The notes below the pieces were generated by a model. The model saw only the letters and a program-made list of their open reading frames with translations, made no database searches and was not told where the DNA came from. Below are positions 4,531 through 42,163 of a stretch of 64,000 bases of DNA, one piece after another (position 1 is the stretch's first letter; each line of letters begins with the position of its first letter). The DNA comes from Bacteroidaceae bacterium (lineage in GTDB: Bacteria; Bacteroidota; Bacteroidia; Bacteroidales; Bacteroidaceae): positions 53,998 to 117,997 of the forward strand of contig JAEEGS010000040.1 of assembly GCA_016280445.1 (NCBI GenBank), in the 5' to 3' direction. The translations under genes were made by a program, and so were the position numbers.

Positions 4531-6351
4531 ATGGACAGTTACAATTGGCTTGACACCTATCAGCGCATCAACAGCGACTTTCCCACCAAGGATGCACGTC
4601 CCATCATTGGCATCACAGGCAACTACGACAAGGAGACCTGCACATTGGCTGAAGGTTACTACCAGTCGGTGCTGAAGGCAGGAGGCATCCCCTTCATCAT
4701 CCCTCCTTTCTTCGAGACAGATCGCCTTGGCGAACTACTCGACCGTCTGGATGGCATCCTCTTCAGCGGTGGTGGCGACATCAATCCGCTGCTGTTGGGT
4801 GAGGAGCCAATCAAGGAACTCCATAGCATCACTCCTGAGCGCGACCAGCAGGAACTGTTGTTGGCCCGTTTGGCGTATGACCGTCAAATCCCCATACTGG
4901 GCATCTGCAAGGGCATCCAAATCATCAATGCAGCCCTTGGCGGAACGCTCTATCAGGACATCCACACACAGATGGAGGGCACGCGCATCAAGCACAGCCA
5001 AGACGAAGACAGGCGTTATCCGTCGCATCAGGTGAGCCTCACGAAAGGCTCCATCCTCGCGAAACTCTTTGGCACGGAACTGGCTGTCAATTCCTTCCAT
5101 CATCAGGCCTGCAAAGAGGCTGCTCCAGGGCTGAAAGTGACAGCCATGAGTGCTGATGGTGTGATTGAAGCCATCGAAAGCAACGAGTTCAAGTCCATCA
5201 TGGGCGTGCAATGGCACCCCGAGACCTACATACTGCGCGGTTGCACCGACATGCTGCCCATCTTCGAGTGGCTTGTGGGCGAAAGTGCCGACTTCAAACG
5301 CGCCAAGAAACTGCACGCCAAGATACTCACGCTCGACAGCCATTGCGACACACCCATGTTCTTCCATCAGGGCATCAACTTCGCATCGCGCGACTCCAAG
5401 ATTCTGGTGGATCTCCACAAGATGACTGAGGGGCACCTCGATGCCACCATCATGGTAGCCTATCTGGAGCAGCAGGAGCGTGACGAAGCATCGCTGGAGA
5501 ACGCAACCGCCAAAGCCAACCAAATCCTCACCCAAATCGAGGAACTGACGGCACAGAACTGCACGGCTGTCGATATCGCTTACACACCCGACGATCTCTG
5601 GCGACTGAAGCGAGAGGGCAAACGCGCCATCATGCTCGGCATCGAGAACGGCTATGCCATCGGTAAGGACATCCGCAACGTCGAGGCATTCCGCAAGCGC
5701 GGCGTGGTGTACATGACCCTCTGCCACAATGGTGACAACGACCTCTGCGACTCCGCACGCGGCAACCACGAACATGGCGGTGTGAGCCCCTTTGGCGCAC
5801 AAGTCATCGGCGAGATGAACCGTGTGGGCATGATGGTCGACCTCAGCCATGCAGCCGAAGAGAGTTTCTACGATGCCCTCAGCATCAGCAAGACCCCCAT
5901 CGTGTGCAGCCACTCCTCTGCCCGTGCCCTGTGCGACCATCCACGCAATCTGACCGATGCCCAGATGCGCGCACTCGCCAATGCTGGCGGTGTGGCACAG
6001 GTGACGCTTTATCACGGGTTCCTGGTCAAGGATTCGGTCGATTACAATCCACAAAACGTGCTTCGTTCTTTCGAATCGCCCACCAACGGTGTAACCGAAG
6101 CCACCATCCTCGATGCCATCGAGCATCTCAACCACATGGTGAACGTGATGGGCATCGAGCACGTGGGCATCGGCACCGATTTCGACGGCGACGGAGGCAT
6201 TCGTGGCTGTGCATCGGCCAGCGAACTCATCAACTTCACCCGTCGCCTGCTCCGCGAACGCTACAGCGAAGAGCAGATACAGATGATTTGGGGCGGCAAC
6301 TTCCTCCGTGTGATGAGAGAGGTACAAGGCTTCCCAGCATCATCCAACTGA
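4531..6351 (+). CDS. Fusion protein: peptidase C26 / class-I glutamine amidotransferase-like hydrolase (N) plus M19 membrane-dipeptidase-like domain (C)
   Basis: N-terminal half: GICKGIQIIN (nucleophile Cys) and VQWHPE (His/Glu). C-terminal half: LDSHCDTP, CSHSSARAL and GIGTDFDG, typical of renal-dipeptidase (M19) enzymes. Confidence 0.8.
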   Translation: MDSYNWLDTYQRINSDFPTKDARPIIGITGNYDKETCTLAEGYYQSVLKAGGIPFIIPPFFETDRLGELLDRLDGILFSGGGDINPLLLGEEPIKELHSITPERDQQELLLARLAYDRQIPILGICKGIQIINAALGGTLYQDIHTQMEGTRIKHSQDEDRRYPSHQVSLTKGSILAKLFGTELAVNSFHHQACKEAAPGLKVTAMSADGVIEAIESNEFKSIMGVQWHPETYILRGCTDMLPIFEWLVGESADFKRAKKLHAKILTLDSHCDTPMFFHQGINFASRDSKILVDLHKMTEGHLDATIMVAYLEQQERDEASLENATAKANQILTQIEELTAQNCTAVDIAYTPDDLWRLKREGKRAIMLGIENGYAIGKDIRNVEAFRKRGVVYMTLCHNGDNDLCDSARGNHEHGGVSPFGAQVIGEMNRVGMMVDLSHAAEESFYDALSISKTPIVCSHSSARALCDHPRNLTDAQMRALANAGGVAQVTLYHGFLVKDSVDYNPQNVLRSFESPTNGVTEATILDAIEHLNHMVNVMGIEHVGIGTDFDGDGGIRGCASASELINFTRRLLRERYSEEQIQMIWGGNFLRVMREVQGFPASSN

Positions 6352-6372
6352 AGAAAGCCCATTTGCTTTCGT

Positions 6373-6471
6373 TTCATTGCCTCTGAATCGGTGTGAGTCA
6401 CACCGAGGTAGGCGGTCTGAGTCACACCGACCCCCTCGGTGTGACTCAGACCGTTTTTGAGGTTGTGGAAG
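6373..6471. repeat. Family A palindromic intergenic element, copy A1
   Basis: An 18-bp perfect hairpin, CGGTCTGAGTCACACCGA (6413-6430) / TCGGTGTGACTCAGACCG (6436-6453), with loop CCCCC. It is preceded by the dyad CGGTGTGAGTCACACCG (6389-6405). The degenerate ends are ...CATTGCCTCTGAA / TTTTTGAGGTTGTGGAAG. Confidence 0.85.
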
Positions 6472-15526: not shown

Positions 15527-15624
15527 TACACTGCCTCAAAGGCGGTGTGAGTCACACCGATAGTAACGGTCTGAGTCACACCGAGGGGGTCGGTGTGACT
15601 CAGACCGTTTTTGAGGTAGTGGAA
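15527..15624. repeat. Family A palindromic intergenic element, copy A2
   Basis: Same architecture as A1: dyad CGGTGTGAGTCACACCG, then an 18-bp perfect hairpin (15567-15584 / 15590-15607) with loop GGGGG. The ends are CACTGCCTCAAA / TTTGAGGTAGTG. Confidence 0.85.
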
Positions 15625-36429: not shown

Positions 36430-37587
36430 ATGAAGAAAAACGTAATGATGCTGCTGGCAGTGTTGTCACTGCTGGGCATGTCCTGTAAGGGTGGTTCATC
36501 ATCAGGTGATGGCTCTGCTGATGTTCCAGAATTTGAGAAGTTGGACGAGCGCGCCACGCTGGTGAAAGTTTTCGAAGCCCTGAACGGAAATGAATGGAAA
36601 GAGGAAGACAAGGCCGGATGGTGTACAGAAGCCCCACTCAACGAATGGAAAGGTGTGGAACTGGACGATGCAGGCAAGGTGACCAAACTGCAACTCTCAG
36701 TTTATGGTGTGAAGGGTGCTATCCCTGCTGAAATTCAGAATCTTGAGGCACTGAAAGATTTGAATGTAACCTTCAAGAATGCAGGTGCTGGCATTCAGAA
36801 TCCTGTTCCAGCCAACGTGTTCCAAATGGCTTCATTGGAGAACCTCCGACTGAACTGTCCTACCAGCAATGCAGACGAATATATCCAGTTGCCAGAGTCA
36901 TTCAACCTGCCCAATCTCAAGCATTTCACCATCAACCGCGTGAAGGGCGACTTCCACCAACTGGGCACTTGCACCAATCTGATCGACATCGTCATCAAGA
37001 ACTGCACCCCTGACATTCCTGCCGAGATTGGCAACTGCACCCAATTGAGAGACATCTTCTGGGAAGGCGAAGGCACTCCCACCAAGCCTCTCACTTCCGA
37101 GTTGACCAAGTTGACTTTGCTGAAAGATTTGACCATCTACAGCGATGAGCCTTATGACGAGAAGTTGCCCGACTTCATCTGGGATATGAGCAGCCTTGAA
37201 AACATCTTGTTGAAGAATGTGGCAAAGAATCACGGTGAACTGGAGGCAGAGAAAGTGGCCAAACTGTCAAAACTCGAAGGCCTGAACCTTATCAAGGATG
37301 GCATCACCAACATTCCTGAGAGCCTTTTCTCCATTGCCAGCCTCAAGTATCTTGACTTGGCAGAAAATGCCATCAGCGGTGAGATTCCAGCCAGCATCGG
37401 CAACTCCAACCTCAGAAGCATCGACTTCAGCAAGAACGCTGGTTTGACAGGCAAGATTCCAGCCAGCATCGGCAATCTGAAGGACTTGTACAAACTTTAT
37501 CTCACCGGTACAGGCATTGATCAGAACGTTCCCGCATCAGTGAAGAGTCTGCCCAAGTTCGACAGTTTCAGCAGCCGCATCTTCTAA
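36430..37587 (+). CDS. Leucine-rich-repeat lipoprotein
   Basis: Lipobox LLGMSC and repeated LxxLxLxxN/C-type units throughout (LKDLNV, LENLRL, LKHFTI, LKDLTI, LEGLNL, LKYLDL...). Confidence 0.8.
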   Translation: MKKNVMMLLAVLSLLGMSCKGGSSSGDGSADVPEFEKLDERATLVKVFEALNGNEWKEEDKAGWCTEAPLNEWKGVELDDAGKVTKLQLSVYGVKGAIPAEIQNLEALKDLNVTFKNAGAGIQNPVPANVFQMASLENLRLNCPTSNADEYIQLPESFNLPNLKHFTINRVKGDFHQLGTCTNLIDIVIKNCTPDIPAEIGNCTQLRDIFWEGEGTPTKPLTSELTKLTLLKDLTIYSDEPYDEKLPDFIWDMSSLENILLKNVAKNHGELEAEKVAKLSKLEGLNLIKDGITNIPESLFSIASLKYLDLAENAISGEIPASIGNSNLRSIDFSKNAGLTGKIPASIGNLKDLYKLYLTGTGIDQNVPASVKSLPKFDSFSSRIF

Positions 37588-37623
37588 AGCACACATATCT
37601 CCCTCATTATCTTGAGGGAACAC

Positions 37624-37672
37624 ACACAAATGACCGGCGTACACACAGCGAGTGTACGCCGGTCATTTGTGT
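37624..37672 (+). terminator. 21-bp perfect hairpin downstream of the LRR gene (terminator-like; no clear U-tract)
   Basis: ACACAAATGACCGGCGTACAC (37624-37644) / GTGTACGCCGGTCATTTGTGT (37652-37672), with loop ACAGCGA. Confidence 0.5.
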
Positions 37673-37725
37673 ATCCCCACTTCCACTGCCGCATATTACT
37701 CTCTTCAAGAACCACCAGAACGACA

Positions 37726-37826
37726 CTTCCACTGCCTCAAAATCGGTGTGACTCACACCGGGTATGTCGGTCTGAGTCACACCGAGGGTGGCGGTCTGAG
37801 TCACACCGTTTTCGAGGCAGTGGAAG
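37726..37826. repeat. Family A palindromic intergenic element, copy A3 (best-preserved termini)
   Basis: Termini CTTCCACTGCCTCAAAA (37726-37742) and TTTTCGAGGCAGTGGAAG (37809-37826) match 17/18 as inverted repeats. There are three GGT(G/C)TGA(G/C)TCACACC boxes inside. Extra solo termini lie at 37680-37690 and 37838-37848. Confidence 0.85.
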
Positions 37827-37963
37827 CATCGAAAAGGAGGCAGTGGAATAAAGCAAGGAGAGGAAACGCCACTCTTATCTGCAAAGTTCTTTCATCATGC
37901 CCCATCTGCACCATACAGAAAAAACATTTTTCCCAAGAATAGTTGTTCGGTTCAAAAATCTTT

Positions 37964-37971
37964 CGTACTTT
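37964..37971 (+). promoter_or_regulatory. -7 box TActTTTG driving the candidate ncRNA
   Basis: Exact TAnnTTTG match. The box ends 6 nt before the 5' strand of the closing helix (37978). Confidence 0.55.
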
Positions 37972-37977
37972 TGCAAC

Positions 37978-38297
37978 TGCATCTGCCCACATGCGCTACC
38001 CGATGCGAGGGAACAGCCGAAGGGTGGAGCACTACATATTAAAGGGCGTTACTGACGCTTTGTTTTTGGTCATTCGAAACTTAGGAACTTCCGAATATAC
38101 AATCAAGAACAATGCAAGGGTAACTCTACGGGGTGTAGTATATACTCTCCGTAGTGTGCTGCGAGGATCAAGCATCCTCAACGCACACTTTACGGGTGTT
38201 TATATACTCCAAACGTGGGTGTTTCTCTGTCTGTTTTTCTCTATGGCTGTGGAAGGCCAGAATATCGAACGGGCAGATGCAAGCATCCACGTTTTTT
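37978..38297 (+). ncRNA. Candidate structured non-coding RNA (~320 nt) upstream of a serine recombinase gene; class unknown
   Basis: An 11-bp perfect long-range helix, TGCATCTGCCC (37978-37988) / GGGCAGATGCA (38271-38281). Internal hairpins at 38072-38096, 38124-38153 and 38154-38188. The 3' end has CCACGTTTTTT (T-run 38292-38297). No conserved motif of RNase P, tmRNA, SRP or 6S RNA was recognised. Confidence 0.45.
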
Positions 38298-38351
38298 ATG
38301 TGTAGTTGGCCATAAATACTAACTCGTTCGCTTTGCAAAGGATGGGTCAAG

Positions 38352-38534
38352 GTGCTTTACAACTATGCAACGGATGCCTTCGATGTGTATTTCTTGAACA
38401 ATCAGAAGGAGGTCGTGGAGAAGGTGGAAGAAGTTTATCTTGACAACCTCGTGGATGTTATTGACCGTCACGTAGAGAAGACCTCAGATTACGAGGAAAG
38501 GGTCAGAGCAGAATACGGGATAACAGCATCGTAA
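38352..38534 (+). CDS. Small acidic hypothetical protein (60 aa, GTG start)
   Basis: ORF only, with no in-frame ATG. It lies just upstream of the recombinase gene on the same strand. Confidence 0.3.
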   Translation: MLYNYATDAFDVYFLNNQKEVVEKVEEVYLDNLVDVIDRHVEKTSDYEERVRAEYGITAS

Positions 38535-38586
38535 TAACCCCAATTACATAAGTAATACGTTCGTTTCACACACGTAAAACAGCATT

Positions 38587-39276
38587 ATGAAAGCAAGAAA
38601 ATTTGTCAGTTGGCGTAGAGTGAGCACCCAAAAGCAGGGTCGCTCAGGTCTTGGTCTTGAAGCACAGCAATCCATCATTCGTTATTTTGTGGATGAGGCT
38701 AATGGAGAATTGATTGCCGACTATTACGAGACATATACAGGTAAGAACCTTCATGGCTGCACAGAACTACAAAAGGCGATGGAGTTCGCAAAAAAGAACG
38801 ATGCCATATTGATGATAGCCAAAAGTGATAGATTCAGAAACTTGGAACAAGCCTTAGAAGTGTATAGGATAATGGATGGTAACATCTATTTTTGTGACGT
38901 ACCTATGGCCGAAGATAAGGCAACCTACAAGTTTATGTTATCCCTTGGATGGTCGTTGGCAGAACGTGAGGCAGCAATAACAAGCCTCAGGACAAAACAA
39001 GCGTTACAGGCGAAGCGTGAGCGTGGGGAAAGAGTTGGCAATCCCAATGCAAAAGTTACAGTCGATATGAGAGCCAACAGCATTACAAGCAGACGTATGG
39101 ATGCACAGATGAACGATAACAACCGAAGGGCATACAAGTTGGTCTGCTTGTTAAGAGAGCAAGGCAAGTCATTCGCTGAGATTGCAAGAGAGTTGAATGA
39201 GAGCGGCTATAAAACGTCTAATGGTAAACAATGGCAAGCAGTCCAAGTGCAAAGATTGACGGCTCTGTACCAATGA
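38587..39276 (+). CDS. Small serine recombinase (resolvase/invertase family) with a C-terminal HTH
   Basis: Catalytic-serine motif SWRRVSTQKQ near the N-terminus, a resolvase core, and a C-terminal HTH (SFAEIARELNESGYKTSNGKQW). Confidence 0.88.
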   Translation: MKARKFVSWRRVSTQKQGRSGLGLEAQQSIIRYFVDEANGELIADYYETYTGKNLHGCTELQKAMEFAKKNDAILMIAKSDRFRNLEQALEVYRIMDGNIYFCDVPMAEDKATYKFMLSLGWSLAEREAAITSLRTKQALQAKRERGERVGNPNAKVTVDMRANSITSRRMDAQMNDNNRRAYKLVCLLREQGKSFAEIARELNESGYKTSNGKQWQAVQVQRLTALYQ

Positions 39277-39594: not shown

Positions 39595-40737
39595 ATGGCA
39601 CTTATTAAATGTACTGAATGTGGAAAAATGATTTCAAGTAGGGCATTAAAGTGTCCTGATTGTGGATGTCCAATAGAAAGTGTTGGAGCAATCCAAGAAG
39701 AAGTGAAGGACGAAGAGCCCGTAAAAAAGAGTAAAGGCAAACTATGGTCTTTGCTTGCTATATTGTTCTGCCTTTTAATAGGTGGAGGATATGCTTATGC
39801 TAAACTCTTTAATGGTGGAAGCAGTGAAGGTTCTGCAATCGTGGAACTAACCCCCGAGTTTGTCAATGCTATCCAAAAGTATGAAGAACTTGGTTCGTTT
39901 TCAGAAGGAATGGCTGCGGTTATGAGAGATGGCAAATGGGGTTATATTAATACAAAAGGAGAGGAAGTTATTCCCTGTCAATTCCCTAATGCTGATTATT
40001 ATAATACAGCAAGTCCTTTTCACGAGGGTTTGGCTCTCATACAAAAGGATGGAAAGTGGGGTTTTATTAATACAAAAGGTGACGAAGTAATCCCCATTAA
40101 TATAGAAGCAGAAGCCGTTGGTAGGTTCTCAGAAGGCTTGGCTTTTGTATATAAAAGCGGCGAAGACTTTTCTGTCATAGATAAGGAAGGTAATACTTTA
40201 TTTAGTGATAAATGTATAAACTTTGGTGAATATTATACAGACGATTTTGATGAAAGTGTTTTACCTTTCTATCGCCAAGGCCTACTATACGTACGGATAA
40301 GTTACGACAAATTTACCGTATATGATAAGCAAGGAAACAAAACAAAAGAGATTAATCAAGAAACCAAAGATGAACTTGACAAACAAGAAGATTCGAAACC
40401 ATACACTATTTTTTTAAAAGAGTTTGACGACAATGAGGTATTATATACTGTTGGATTGAAAGATGCGAATGGAACAGAACTCTTACCTGCAATTTATGAC
40501 GAAATTGAAAATTACGGTCTTGAACAATATTTTGATGCTCCCAATGGCGTTGTTTTAGTTGTTTTAGAAGAAATCGGTGATGATGTTTTTGAAGGATATG
40601 CAGGTGAGTTAGAAAACACTAAACGTTATTATGGTTATGCCGACCTAAAAGGTAATGATACATTTACAGATGAAATTAAACAAAAATGTAAAAAGTCAAA
40701 AGAAGATGCCATTGCAAAGGGATTATTAGATTATTAA
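39595..40737 (+). CDS. Zinc-ribbon, single-pass membrane protein with WG (KWG-type) beta-repeats
   Basis: N-terminal CTECG...CPDCGC zinc ribbon, a TM helix (LWSLLAILFCLLIGGGYAYA) and repeated DGKWGYINTKGEEVIP / DGKWGFINTKGDEVIP units. Visibly AT-rich codon usage. Confidence 0.8.
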   Translation: MALIKCTECGKMISSRALKCPDCGCPIESVGAIQEEVKDEEPVKKSKGKLWSLLAILFCLLIGGGYAYAKLFNGGSSEGSAIVELTPEFVNAIQKYEELGSFSEGMAAVMRDGKWGYINTKGEEVIPCQFPNADYYNTASPFHEGLALIQKDGKWGFINTKGDEVIPINIEAEAVGRFSEGLAFVYKSGEDFSVIDKEGNTLFSDKCINFGEYYTDDFDESVLPFYRQGLLYVRISYDKFTVYDKQGNKTKEINQETKDELDKQEDSKPYTIFLKEFDDNEVLYTVGLKDANGTELLPAIYDEIENYGLEQYFDAPNGVVLVVLEEIGDDVFEGYAGELENTKRYYGYADLKGNDTFTDEIKQKCKKSKEDAIAKGLLDY

Positions 40738-41062: not shown

Positions 41063-42163
41063 ATGGCAGAACAAGAGAAATGGCAATGGCAAGAGCCCGG
41101 TACAACTTGGAAGGGGGTCGGTTTATATCATATCATATTGACGATTCCCGACCGTCGGCCTTTGTTGGGTACGCTGGTTGTTCCTGAAAGAGACCCTTCG
41201 AAGGCTAGGGTGAGCCGCACGGCTTTAGGGAATGCCCTTGTGAATTGTCTGCTGGGAATCCCACGTTATCATCCTGAGGTGCAGGTGCTCCATTTCTGTC
41301 TGATGCCTGACCACCTGCATGCTGTGTTATTTGTGAGGCGGAGAATGGCGAAAGGAATTGGGATGTTGGTTCGTGGATTCTGGCAGGCAACAAAGAAACT
41401 AGGGCGCGCTTATTCAGCAGCTTCTTCTGTTGAGCCGAATGATATTCGGGAAAGTTGCCAAGAAGAGAAACTGCTGGGAAAACTCCAGGAAGAGACTGTT
41501 CGATTAGAGAAACTTGCAGCGGTACTGTGCAAGGAGATGGGTGATGAGGCTTATTACCGCCTGGAACCTGTCTTCAAGGAGATGCCTTTCATACGTCCGA
41601 TGGGGCGGCGCTCACAACTGCCCAACACGATTCGCTATATTGATATGAATCCCCAACGGTTGGCCACCAAGCGCCTCAAGCCAGGTTTGTTCCGAGTTCA
41701 GAAGGATATTGAGATTGGCGGACGACGATATGATGGAGTGGGTAATGCGACTTTACTGATGGCTGAGCACTTCAAGCCTGTTCATGTACGCCACGAGCTG
41801 TTGGACGAAGCCGCCAACGGCGACAGCCAGCCTCTGCGCAATTATATGAACGGCTGCGTGCAGGCTGCCCGTCAAGGGACGGTGATGGTTTCGCCTTTTA
41901 TCTCACCTAAAGAGAAGGATGTACAGGCCGTTCTCCTTGCAGAGAAACACCCCTTCATCCTTCTTGCTGACAATGGTTTTCGTGACTACTACAAGCCTGC
42001 AGACAGCCTGTTTGATGCATGTGCTTCGGGGCGTGTGCTTATCCTTAGTCCTTGGCCTTACGATGCCAACAAACGGCATATCAGCAGAGCTGATTGCAAA
42101 GCCCTCAATGCGATGGCGGAAGAAATCTGTCATCACCTTATGGGGAGCGGGAAATTCTCATGA
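41063..42163 (+). CDS. HUH-Y1 transposase homologue (IS200/RAYT-like), enlarged to 366 aa
   Basis: HUH motif in LMPDHLHAVLF. The catalytic-Tyr helix motif is NTIRYIDMNPQRL (compare the Y-x-x-x-NP of IS200/RAYT proteins). There is a long insertion between the two motifs and a ~150-aa C-terminal extension. Confidence 0.65.
   Translation: MAEQEKWQWQEPGTTWKGVGLYHIILTIPDRRPLLGTLVVPERDPSKARVSRTALGNALVNCLLGIPRYHPEVQVLHFCLMPDHLHAVLFVRRRMAKGIGMLVRGFWQATKKLGRAYSAASSVEPNDIRESCQEEKLLGKLQEETVRLEKLAAVLCKEMGDEAYYRLEPVFKEMPFIRPMGRRSQLPNTIRYIDMNPQRLATKRLKPGLFRVQKDIEIGGRRYDGVGNATLLMAEHFKPVHVRHELLDEAANGDSQPLRNYMNGCVQAARQGTVMVSPFISPKEKDVQAVLLAEKHPFILLADNGFRDYYKPADSLFDACASGRVLILSPWPYDANKRHISRADCKALNAMAEEICHHLMGSGKFS

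Follow-up and report, generated by a model that had tools for sequence, protein, structure and literature searches.

The question raised by this locus is what kind of element occupies some 320 nt (37978-38297, forward strand) of a 64,000-nt stretch of Bacteroidaceae contig JAEEGS010000040.1, here called the window, and whether it belongs with the small serine recombinase gene encoded after it. A preliminary description had seen a discrete structured non-coding RNA at this place, bounded by a promoter and a terminator and closed by an 11-bp helix between its ends, and had suggested a functional tie to the recombinase. The element, here termed RNA1, is a member of an uncatalogued family of ~320-nt structured RNAs of Prevotella-like Bacteroidota, and it is nearly certain that this structured RNA family is tied to restriction-modification loci. 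The copy in the window is probably (with a probability that we put at roughly 0.6) an orphaned copy of a new family of leader or attenuator RNAs, left behind when the genes downstream of it were replaced.

Homologous DNA was collected by way of a 120-amino acid (aa) open reading frame (ORF) that overlaps RNA1 (37943-38305). An alignment of the protein matches of its translation led to 337 related metagenome stretches, of which 80 loci were retrieved; counts of RNA1 loci refer to these 80, and counts of first downstream ORFs and of promoters to a non-redundant set of 60. All 80 loci match the window collinearly from ~37955 or 38015 to ~38305-38335, with 77-87% nucleotide identity, and an nhmmer profile of 328 positions matches 37972-38296 with E = 8.6e-93. 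The consensus fold computed with RNAalifold for 65 aligned sequences (alignment A4) comprises 67 pairs, with standard pairing in 97.5% of cells. Compensatory changes are found at 19 of these pairs (139 cells vs 48 in shuffles), on five structure measures the observed value is not reached once in 500 shuffles, and pairing falls to 41-52% in a control in which the 3' partners are slid. RNA folding of 37975-38300 in the window gives -118.8 kcal/mol, vs -87.7 +/- 5.4 kcal/mol in dinucleotide shuffles (z = -5.76), and none of the 100 shuffles folds as well. The discrete structured RNA of the preliminary description is borne out by fold score, pairing and compensatory pairs alike, and covariation among homologues, which it had named as a check, is there.

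The family corresponds to no known RNA, as had been supposed. A search of the whole window against Rfam 15 at the gathering score returned no match, a search at E <= 10 over 37400-38800 returned only microRNA-model noise from nearby palindromes, and eleven related loci gave no Rfam match at RNA1 or at a second RNA (RNA2) described below. Likewise, blastn of 37600-38340 against phage and plasmid collections found no match, and the invariant 23-mer of RNA1 is absent from IMG/VR viral contigs. No account of such an RNA was found in the literature searched, in which the coverage of subscription journals is incomplete.

Transcription of RNA1 would start from a -7 promoter box of the Bacteroidota type, TACTTTTG (TAnnTTTG; 37966-37973, forward strand), identified by the aligned box in homologues and by its enrichment in the window. 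TAnnTTTGC occurs there 22 times, vs 6.2 expected, typically ahead of genes, and is therefore the promoter type of the window organism; published Bacteroides promoter geometry would place the transcription start at ~37977-37979. The preliminary description was right about the presence of this box before the 5' arm of the supposed closing helix, but the box ends 4 nt, not 6 nt, before it. The two 11-nt arms, TGCATCTGCCC (37978-37988) and GGGCAGATGCA (38271-38281), are perfectly complementary, as had been stated, but the 11-bp helix that they were thought to form is absent from both the minimum-energy fold and the 65-sequence consensus. In the minimum-energy fold the 5' arm is paired locally with GGGTGGA (38022-38028), and the 3' arm lies inside a long terminator hairpin.

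The local pairing of the 5' arm is helix H1 (TCTGCCC 37982-37988 / GGGTGGA 38022-38028), which encloses a variable inner hairpin and defines Domain 1 (37982-38028, forward strand, as are all parts of RNA1). H1 is paired in 98% of cells with compensatory changes in 5 of its 7 pairs, and the inner helix of the domain, H4, covaries at 5/5 pairs. Domain 1 is followed by a near-invariant core, GCACTACATATTAAAGGGCGTTACTGACGCTTTGTTTTTGG (38029-38069), evident from the alignment, which holds the 5' strands of H5-H7; within it GGCGTTACTGACGCTTTGTTTTT is invariant in 65/65 sequences, and a simple terminator scan also flags 38043-38061 as terminator-like. The consensus places H5 at 38045-38053 / 38119-38127 and H7 at 38064-38068 / 38104-38108. 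The minimum-energy fold adds a hairpin at 38072-38096, whose stem (TTCGAA / TTCGAA-like) is conserved and whose apex differs in sequence among homologues, with 2-nt indels. Domain 3 (38130-38210), found in both the minimum-energy fold and the consensus, is formed by H8 (38130-38133 / 38207-38210), H9 (38135-38137 / 38203-38205), H10 (38149-38159 / 38183-38195) and an inner hairpin, GAGGAT-CAAGC-ATCCTC (38163-38179), whose pairing is kept while its sequence and length vary among homologues. H10 carries no covariation information because it is invariant. Three internal hairpins had been proposed, of which those at 38072-38096 and 38154-38188 are recovered in the minimum-energy fold, the outer stem of the latter being H10 of the consensus; the one at 38124-38153 is found neither there nor in the consensus.

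Fold, inverted repeat and consensus agree on a 3' end that resembles an intrinsic terminator, here termed T1 (38211-38297), a long irregular hairpin followed by a T6 tract (38292-38297). Its consensus helices H11 (38215-38218 / 38287-38290), H12 (38227-38236 / 38267-38276) and H13 (38244-38248 / 38255-38259) are paired in 92-99% of cells, with compensatory changes in H12 and H13, and the U-tract is conserved in the alignment. The terminator stem that had been mentioned as an alternative pairing holds up as well: AAACGTGG / AAACGTGGGTGTTT (38211-38224) pairs with CCACGTTT / AAGCATCCACGTTT (38281-38294) at 86% and T6 comes after it. The conserved fold is predicted, then, to end in an intrinsic terminator, as a terminator-based leader would.

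The regular neighbours of RNA1 are Type II restriction-modification genes. Such a gene is the first downstream ORF on the same strand in ~54 of the 60 non-redundant copies, and in most loci the first ORF begins 46-320 nt after T1. The protein family found downstream on the same strand in 63 of the 80 loci, at a median distance of 298 nt, is the C5 DNA methyltransferase, and 43 of the 60 first ORFs match PF00145. The other first ORFs encode Eco57I, D12 and N6_N4 methylases, an EcoRI methylase, HaeIII and TdeIII endonucleases and a MutH-like protein. The ORFs that come next encode further methylases, the BpuJI, HaeIII, NgoPII, NgoFVII and EcoRII endonucleases and Vsr, as well as LlaJI with a McrB-like AAA protein, HNH, PD-(D/E)XK and Z1/DUF2357 proteins. 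Upstream of RNA1 the genes are ordinary chromosomal ones that differ from locus to locus, such as rpsD-rpoA-rplQ, glycoside hydrolases or toxin-antitoxin genes. No gene for a C protein was noticed between the leader and the methyltransferase, although no systematic search for one was made.

In these loci RNA1 belongs to a portable module. Where the RNA of two loci is 90-96% identical, only a block of ~645-685 nt is common to them, the flanks on either side being unrelated, and the boundary of the module falls exactly at the start codon. Of the 60 loci, 56 have a TAnnTTTG box where RNA1 begins, but only 2 have one in the interval from T1 to the first ORF; in 11 of the 60, loci that lack the second RNA, this interval is just 46-67 nt. 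T1 is followed in 58 of 61 loci by a hairpin made of 29 different stems around a conserved GGGTG-containing loop, and these stems covary. In most C5-methyltransferase loci this hairpin precedes RNA2, a structured RNA of ~250 nt that comes in two types, A (35 loci) and B (26 loci), both with compensatory pairs and both ending in a terminator-like hairpin (T2) immediately 5' of the ATG. The post-T1 hairpin and RNA2 are further conserved RNA elements that have not been catalogued, and Rfam has no match for either. Examples of RNA2 are found at L015 2981-3267 (type A) and L032 5332-5645 (type B), and type B carries up to five CUGAC repeats. The hairpin is found, for instance, at L028 ~600-640; its loop, GGGUG(C/U)UU (GGGUGCUU), has a complement, AAGCACCC, in the 3' strand of T1.

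The order of the module, which is ~650 nt long, is a TAnnTTTG promoter, RNA1 ending in T1, the GGGUG-loop hairpin, often RNA2 of type A or B with T2, and the ATG of the restriction-modification operon. The operons lack a promoter box of their own, and therefore they would most likely be transcribed from the RNA1 promoter, which would require reading through T1 and T2. In the related loci RNA1 stands 5' of the genes that it would control and on their strand; in the window that operon is missing. The mechanism best supported by this arrangement, again with a probability of about 0.6, is that RNA1 acts in cis as a conditional terminator, that is, as an attenuator or riboswitch-like leader that would gate the expression of methyltransferase and endonuclease.

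The 11-bp helix, rejected as the closing helix of the RNA, may have a role in such a mechanism as the antiterminator, with the 5' arm as the candidate antiterminator strand. It is mutually exclusive with H1 and H12, and the three-way complementarity between the 5' arm, its H1 partner and the 3' strand of T1 is conserved, an arrangement that would fit a terminator/antiterminator pair. In the proposed scheme, pairing of the 5' arm, UGCAUCUGCC, with the local GGGUGGA (H1) would let T1 form and transcription stop, and pairing of the same arm with GGCAGAUGCA in the 3' strand of T1 would block T1 and permit read-through. Competition between the two partners of the 5' arm would make a plausible switch, responding to a signal that could be a metabolite, a protein or an RNA. 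When the two states are forced on the 65 sequences, the long-range state and the H1 + T1 state are on average similar in energy (ddG = +2.9 +/- 7.8 kcal/mol), and the long-range state is the better one in 25/65.

The copy in the window owes its present neighbour to a rearrangement. Downstream of T1 the alignment identifies a remnant of the post-terminator spacer (38298-38334, forward strand), in which the hairpin that comes next in the family is represented by its 5' half alone (GTTCGCTT); the other loci that have this hairpin complete its stem around the loop, and the window lacks the 3' half. The ends of two homology blocks mark a junction at 38334-38337: homology to the RNA1 family stops at ~38334, and homology (95%) to the recombinase loci L005-L007 from pig gut begins abruptly at 38337, with a short CTT-TG microhomology at the junction itself. 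The first feature beyond it is the 3' part of a gene for a protein of 106-129 aa (38337-38534, forward strand), truncated at its 5' end to a residual ORF of 60 aa (38352-38534), which tblastn aligns with 97% identity to the C-terminal 60 aa of the full-length gene (full-length homologues: L005 3559/3619-3948 and L001 2628-2948, 106 aa). The recombinase gene follows at 38587-39276 on the same strand. Its product, a small serine recombinase of 229 aa, matches Resolvase PF00239 (E = 2.9e-12) and Recombinase PF07508 in Pfam and a DNA invertase or integrase in PHROG, and belongs to a family of 3062 matches. Hence, the statement that RNA1 lies directly upstream of the recombinase, correct as to their common orientation, was exaggerated, since 290 nt and a truncated ORF separate the two.

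A search of the whole window revealed neither the second half of the hairpin nor RNA2 nor a methyltransferase gene, so that the recombinase module cannot simply have inserted into the hairpin. The junction is the scar of a rearrangement by which, ~38 nt after T1, the restriction-modification part of the locus was replaced by a truncated recombinase module, and the recombinase is a neighbour of RNA1 through this event and not part of the RNA system. The succession of leucine-rich-repeat (LRR) protein gene, RNA1 and recombinase is 100% identical in three other metagenome assemblies and is therefore a fixed feature of the lineage, not an assembly artefact. No TAnnTTTGC box occurs between RNA1 and the recombinase gene, which in the window may be fed by read-through from RNA1 as a by-product of the rearrangement. 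An alignment with L001 made with MAFFT had also suggested that the 3' half of RNA1 might be the decayed N-terminal half of the 106-aa gene; this idea was rejected because 80 loci without that gene conserve the stretch as part of RNA1.

Several observations weigh against the view of RNA1 as a conditional terminator. About 6 of the 60 copies, and the copy in the window, have no recognizable restriction-modification gene after RNA1. The 11-bp helix can be paired in 82.8% of cells in the 65 sequences, and its covariation equals that of shuffles; in the window copy, H1 and T1 are favoured over this antiterminator helix by 9.8 kcal/mol. The ends of the transcript, termination at T1 and read-through are all predicted from sequence, and the restriction-modification genes might have promoters of a form other than TAnnTTTG downstream of T1. 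To our knowledge, no ligand or binding protein of RNA1 has been described, and the strong conservation of its unpaired stretches is just as compatible with an RNA that acts in trans or is bound by a protein.

This last point leads to the strongest alternative, which we consider unlikely but by no means negligible: that RNA1 is an independent, stable RNA, acting in trans or binding a protein, which travels with restriction-modification cassettes, T1 being constitutive and the downstream genes being transcribed from non-canonical promoters. Such an RNA might titrate a regulator, act like an antitoxin on the endonuclease mRNA or coordinate several systems. Its own promoter and strong terminator would be in keeping with this, the long invariant unpaired stretches suggest a binding surface, and the GGGUG and CUGAC motifs recur in RNA1, in the hairpin loop and in type B RNA2; moreover, the window copy persists, identical in the three other assemblies, with no restriction-modification genes beside it. 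A free-standing RNA would, however, hardly be expected to lie strictly co-oriented and immediately upstream of the operon, with a promoter box so seldom found between T1 and the ORF, with the ORF starting as little as 46-67 nt after T1 in several loci and with the boundary of the module exactly at the start codon.

The same modular architecture could be read, with still less probability, as a platform at the DNA or RNA level for the acquisition and exchange of restriction-modification cassettes, by analogy with integrons. The hairpin after T1 would then be a recombination site or hotspot, and the junction in the window a product of that activity, possibly by way of the neighbouring serine recombinase. 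The presence of many unrelated restriction-modification systems behind one leader, the sharp boundaries of the module, the window breakpoint inside the hairpin and the 29 stems around one conserved loop are what such a platform might produce. The covariation of these stems, however, reflects selection on a folded single strand and does not show recombination, and 0 of the 80 loci have an associated recombinase. In the window, the absence of the other hairpin half, of RNA2 and of the methyltransferase does not fit a simple insertion, a gene of the recombinase module has lost its 5' part at the junction as well, and the microhomology is only short.

A further DNA-level explanation starts from the two 11-nt arms, which are perfect inverted repeats 282 bp apart and might bound an invertible segment. 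An invertase would flip it, breaking and restoring the terminator and so phase-varying downstream expression; the recombinase nearby is of the Pin-like invertase type, and inversion would indeed break T1. We regard this as very improbable, for the 80 loci all run collinear with the window through the two repeats, with not one inverted variant among these contigs, and compensatory changes in several helices indicate that selection acts on the folded single strand. In addition, the other loci all lack the invertase, and the promoter lies outside the repeats.

Even less credit can be given to the idea that RNA1 is a guide or assembly partner of the adjacent recombinase. Its sole support is the co-orientation and proximity of the two in the window and in the identical copies, together with the missing promoter box between them, which means that the recombinase may be co-transcribed with RNA1. 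The functional tie suggested by the preliminary description is not supported by comparison: within 5 kb of RNA1 the 80 loci encode nothing related to the recombinase, the 60-aa ORF or the WG-repeat protein, nor do they have a relative of the LRR protein, the RNA1 profile finds no copy in 7 loci of the recombinase family, and none of the 4 loci obtained in a recombinase-based search of genome contigs has RNA1. The recombinase of L005-L007, 93% identical to that of the window, is preceded by genes for proteins of 488 aa, 104 aa, WYL_2 type and 109-129 aa, and in L001 it is likewise protein genes that precede it; the junction, moreover, truncates both supposed partners. The loops of RNA1, for which matches to other sites had been envisaged, fare no better, since blastn of RNA1 against the whole window yields only matches of 13-33 nt at chance level (E = 0.07-0.9). 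A tempting lead towards an RNA-guided serine recombinase is thereby removed.

Finally, there is hardly any chance that the overlapping 120-aa ORF encodes a protein, even though it is open in the window and its translation matches 140 database 'proteins', for these range from 67 to 203 aa and differ by frameshifts and segment replacements (alignment A3), 64/64 homologues change reading phase relative to the window and only ~14/65 keep an open frame across the core, which rules out the coding reading, no Pfam match is found and conservation is at the level of nucleotides and structure. Identity blocks broken by frame-shifted or replaced segments are what spurious ORF calls over a conserved non-coding element would look like, and the earlier view that the ORF is not a gene is upheld.

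Among known systems, RNA1 would work most like the terminator-based leaders, such as riboswitches, T-boxes and attenuators. It resembles them in its position as a 5' leader co-oriented with an operon, in its conserved multi-helix fold with invariant unpaired stretches, and in its intrinsic terminator end, accompanied by a conserved competing pairing that would keep the terminator from forming. It differs from attenuator and riboswitch leaders in that the long-range 5'/3' antiterminator helix is without covariation support and no Rfam 15 family matches, and at 320 nt, with a further structured unit of 250 nt, it is much larger than most riboswitches. We know of no report of restriction-modification systems under riboswitch-like leaders, and the literature searched gave none. 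The known controls of restriction-modification are C proteins, autoregulation by the methyltransferase and antisense RNAs such as that of EcoRI; they are small helix-turn-helix proteins or short antisense transcripts, each specific to one system. RNA1 would share their purpose, the timing and level of methyltransferase and endonuclease, and their place at the head of the operon, but it is one large sense-strand module common to dozens of unrelated Type II systems (C5, N4/N6, Dam-like and Eco57I-like).

Processive antitermination RNAs, such as put of phage HK022 and EAR of Bacillus, are far shorter than RNA1 and lack a strong terminator at their own end. Like them, RNA1 is a structured RNA close to the promoter and ahead of a long operon with terminators (T1 and T2), yet neither by sequence nor by model is there any similarity. 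The bridge RNAs or seekRNAs of IS110/IS1111 and the omega-RNAs of IscB/TnpB (HEARO) are, like RNA1, structured RNAs of a few hundred nucleotides beside a DNA-acting enzyme. They always co-occur with that enzyme (a DEDD recombinase, or RuvC or HNH nucleases) at the end of a mobile element, and they have programmable guide loops. RNA1, in contrast, does not co-occur with a recombinase, its neighbour enzyme in the window is a serine recombinase, and no guide-like complementarity is found within the window; a bridge-RNA-like system was ruled out on these three grounds. A retron msr/msd RNA was discarded as well: inverted repeats are present, as the a1/a2 repeats of retrons would be, but there is no adjacent reverse transcriptase, and no reverse-transcriptase family appears among the Pfam matches of the downstream ORFs or of the window neighbours.

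Restriction-modification is the most common anti-phage defence of bacteria, and its expression must be tightly balanced if self-restriction is to be avoided. It seems possible, though we hold this more tentatively than the leader function of RNA1 and at somewhat less than even odds, that RNA1, the GGGUG-loop hairpin and the type A or B RNA form together a new class of large regulatory leader, a shared checkpoint that would exert conditional termination at T1 and T2 over many unrelated Type II systems in rumen and gut Prevotellaceae. If so, a cell could shift its whole restriction barrier on a single signal, for example methyl-donor supply, DNA uptake or phage attack, and a portable RNA leader common to dozens of systems would amount to a new regulatory layer. 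Dominant bacteria of rumen and gut are notorious for resisting transformation, and such a leader would open a way to control their restriction barrier in a coordinated fashion; for RNA biology it would be a new multi-domain RNA (~320 nt + ~250 nt) that covaries well and whose function has an obvious read-out.

Some of the related loci hold further RNA elements. Partial copies that comprise the promoter and no more than the H1 domain of RNA1 (its first 55-90 nt) are found at L057 884-956, L024 518-599 and L045 4218-4378, ~750-800 nt upstream of the full RNA1, and the 5' domain may therefore be a module that is reused separately. The partial copy of L057 directly precedes an ORF of 184 aa (971-1525) with no function assigned. 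In the flank of another related locus, L035, the reverse strand carries a SAM-I/IV riboswitch (6347-6463; 44.5 bits vs a gathering score of 41.1), a known element unrelated to RNA1.

The recombinase family, for its part, has companions of its own, a small gene upstream (106-129 aa, no Pfam match) and a gene for a zinc-ribbon/WG-repeat protein downstream (in the window, 38337-39276 and 39595-40737), joined in L005 (994-6645) by those for the WYL_2 and 488-aa proteins. Recombinase and companions are probably a small mobile or phase-variation module.

Upstream of RNA1, a perfect 21-bp inverted repeat with a 7-nt loop, ACACAAATGACCGGCGTACAC / GTGTACGCCGGTCATTTGTGT (37624-37672), lies 37 nt after the stop codon of the LRR lipoprotein gene and is probably the terminator of that gene or another repeat element. 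Between it and the RNA1 promoter, at 37744-37808, stands one copy of a dispersed intergenic repeat, with further copies at 6389-6453 and 15543-15607. This repeat consists of three tandem palindromic units of 24 nt (CGGTGTGACTCACACCG-like; 18 strand-matches in the window vs 0.23 expected), and its palindromic nature explains the microRNA-model noise in the Rfam search by E-value. The copy next to RNA1 is flanked by inverted CTTCCACTGCC motifs at 37680, 37726, 37816(-) and 37839(-), and the repeat looks like a repetitive extragenic palindromic (REP) or miniature inverted-repeat transposable element. On the other side of the recombinase, an ORF of 366 aa (41063-42163, forward strand) without Pfam or PHROG match contains an HUH-like motif, LHFCLMPDHLHAVLF, reminiscent of Y1 transposases of the IS200/RAYT type, and could be connected with the REP-like repeats of the window.

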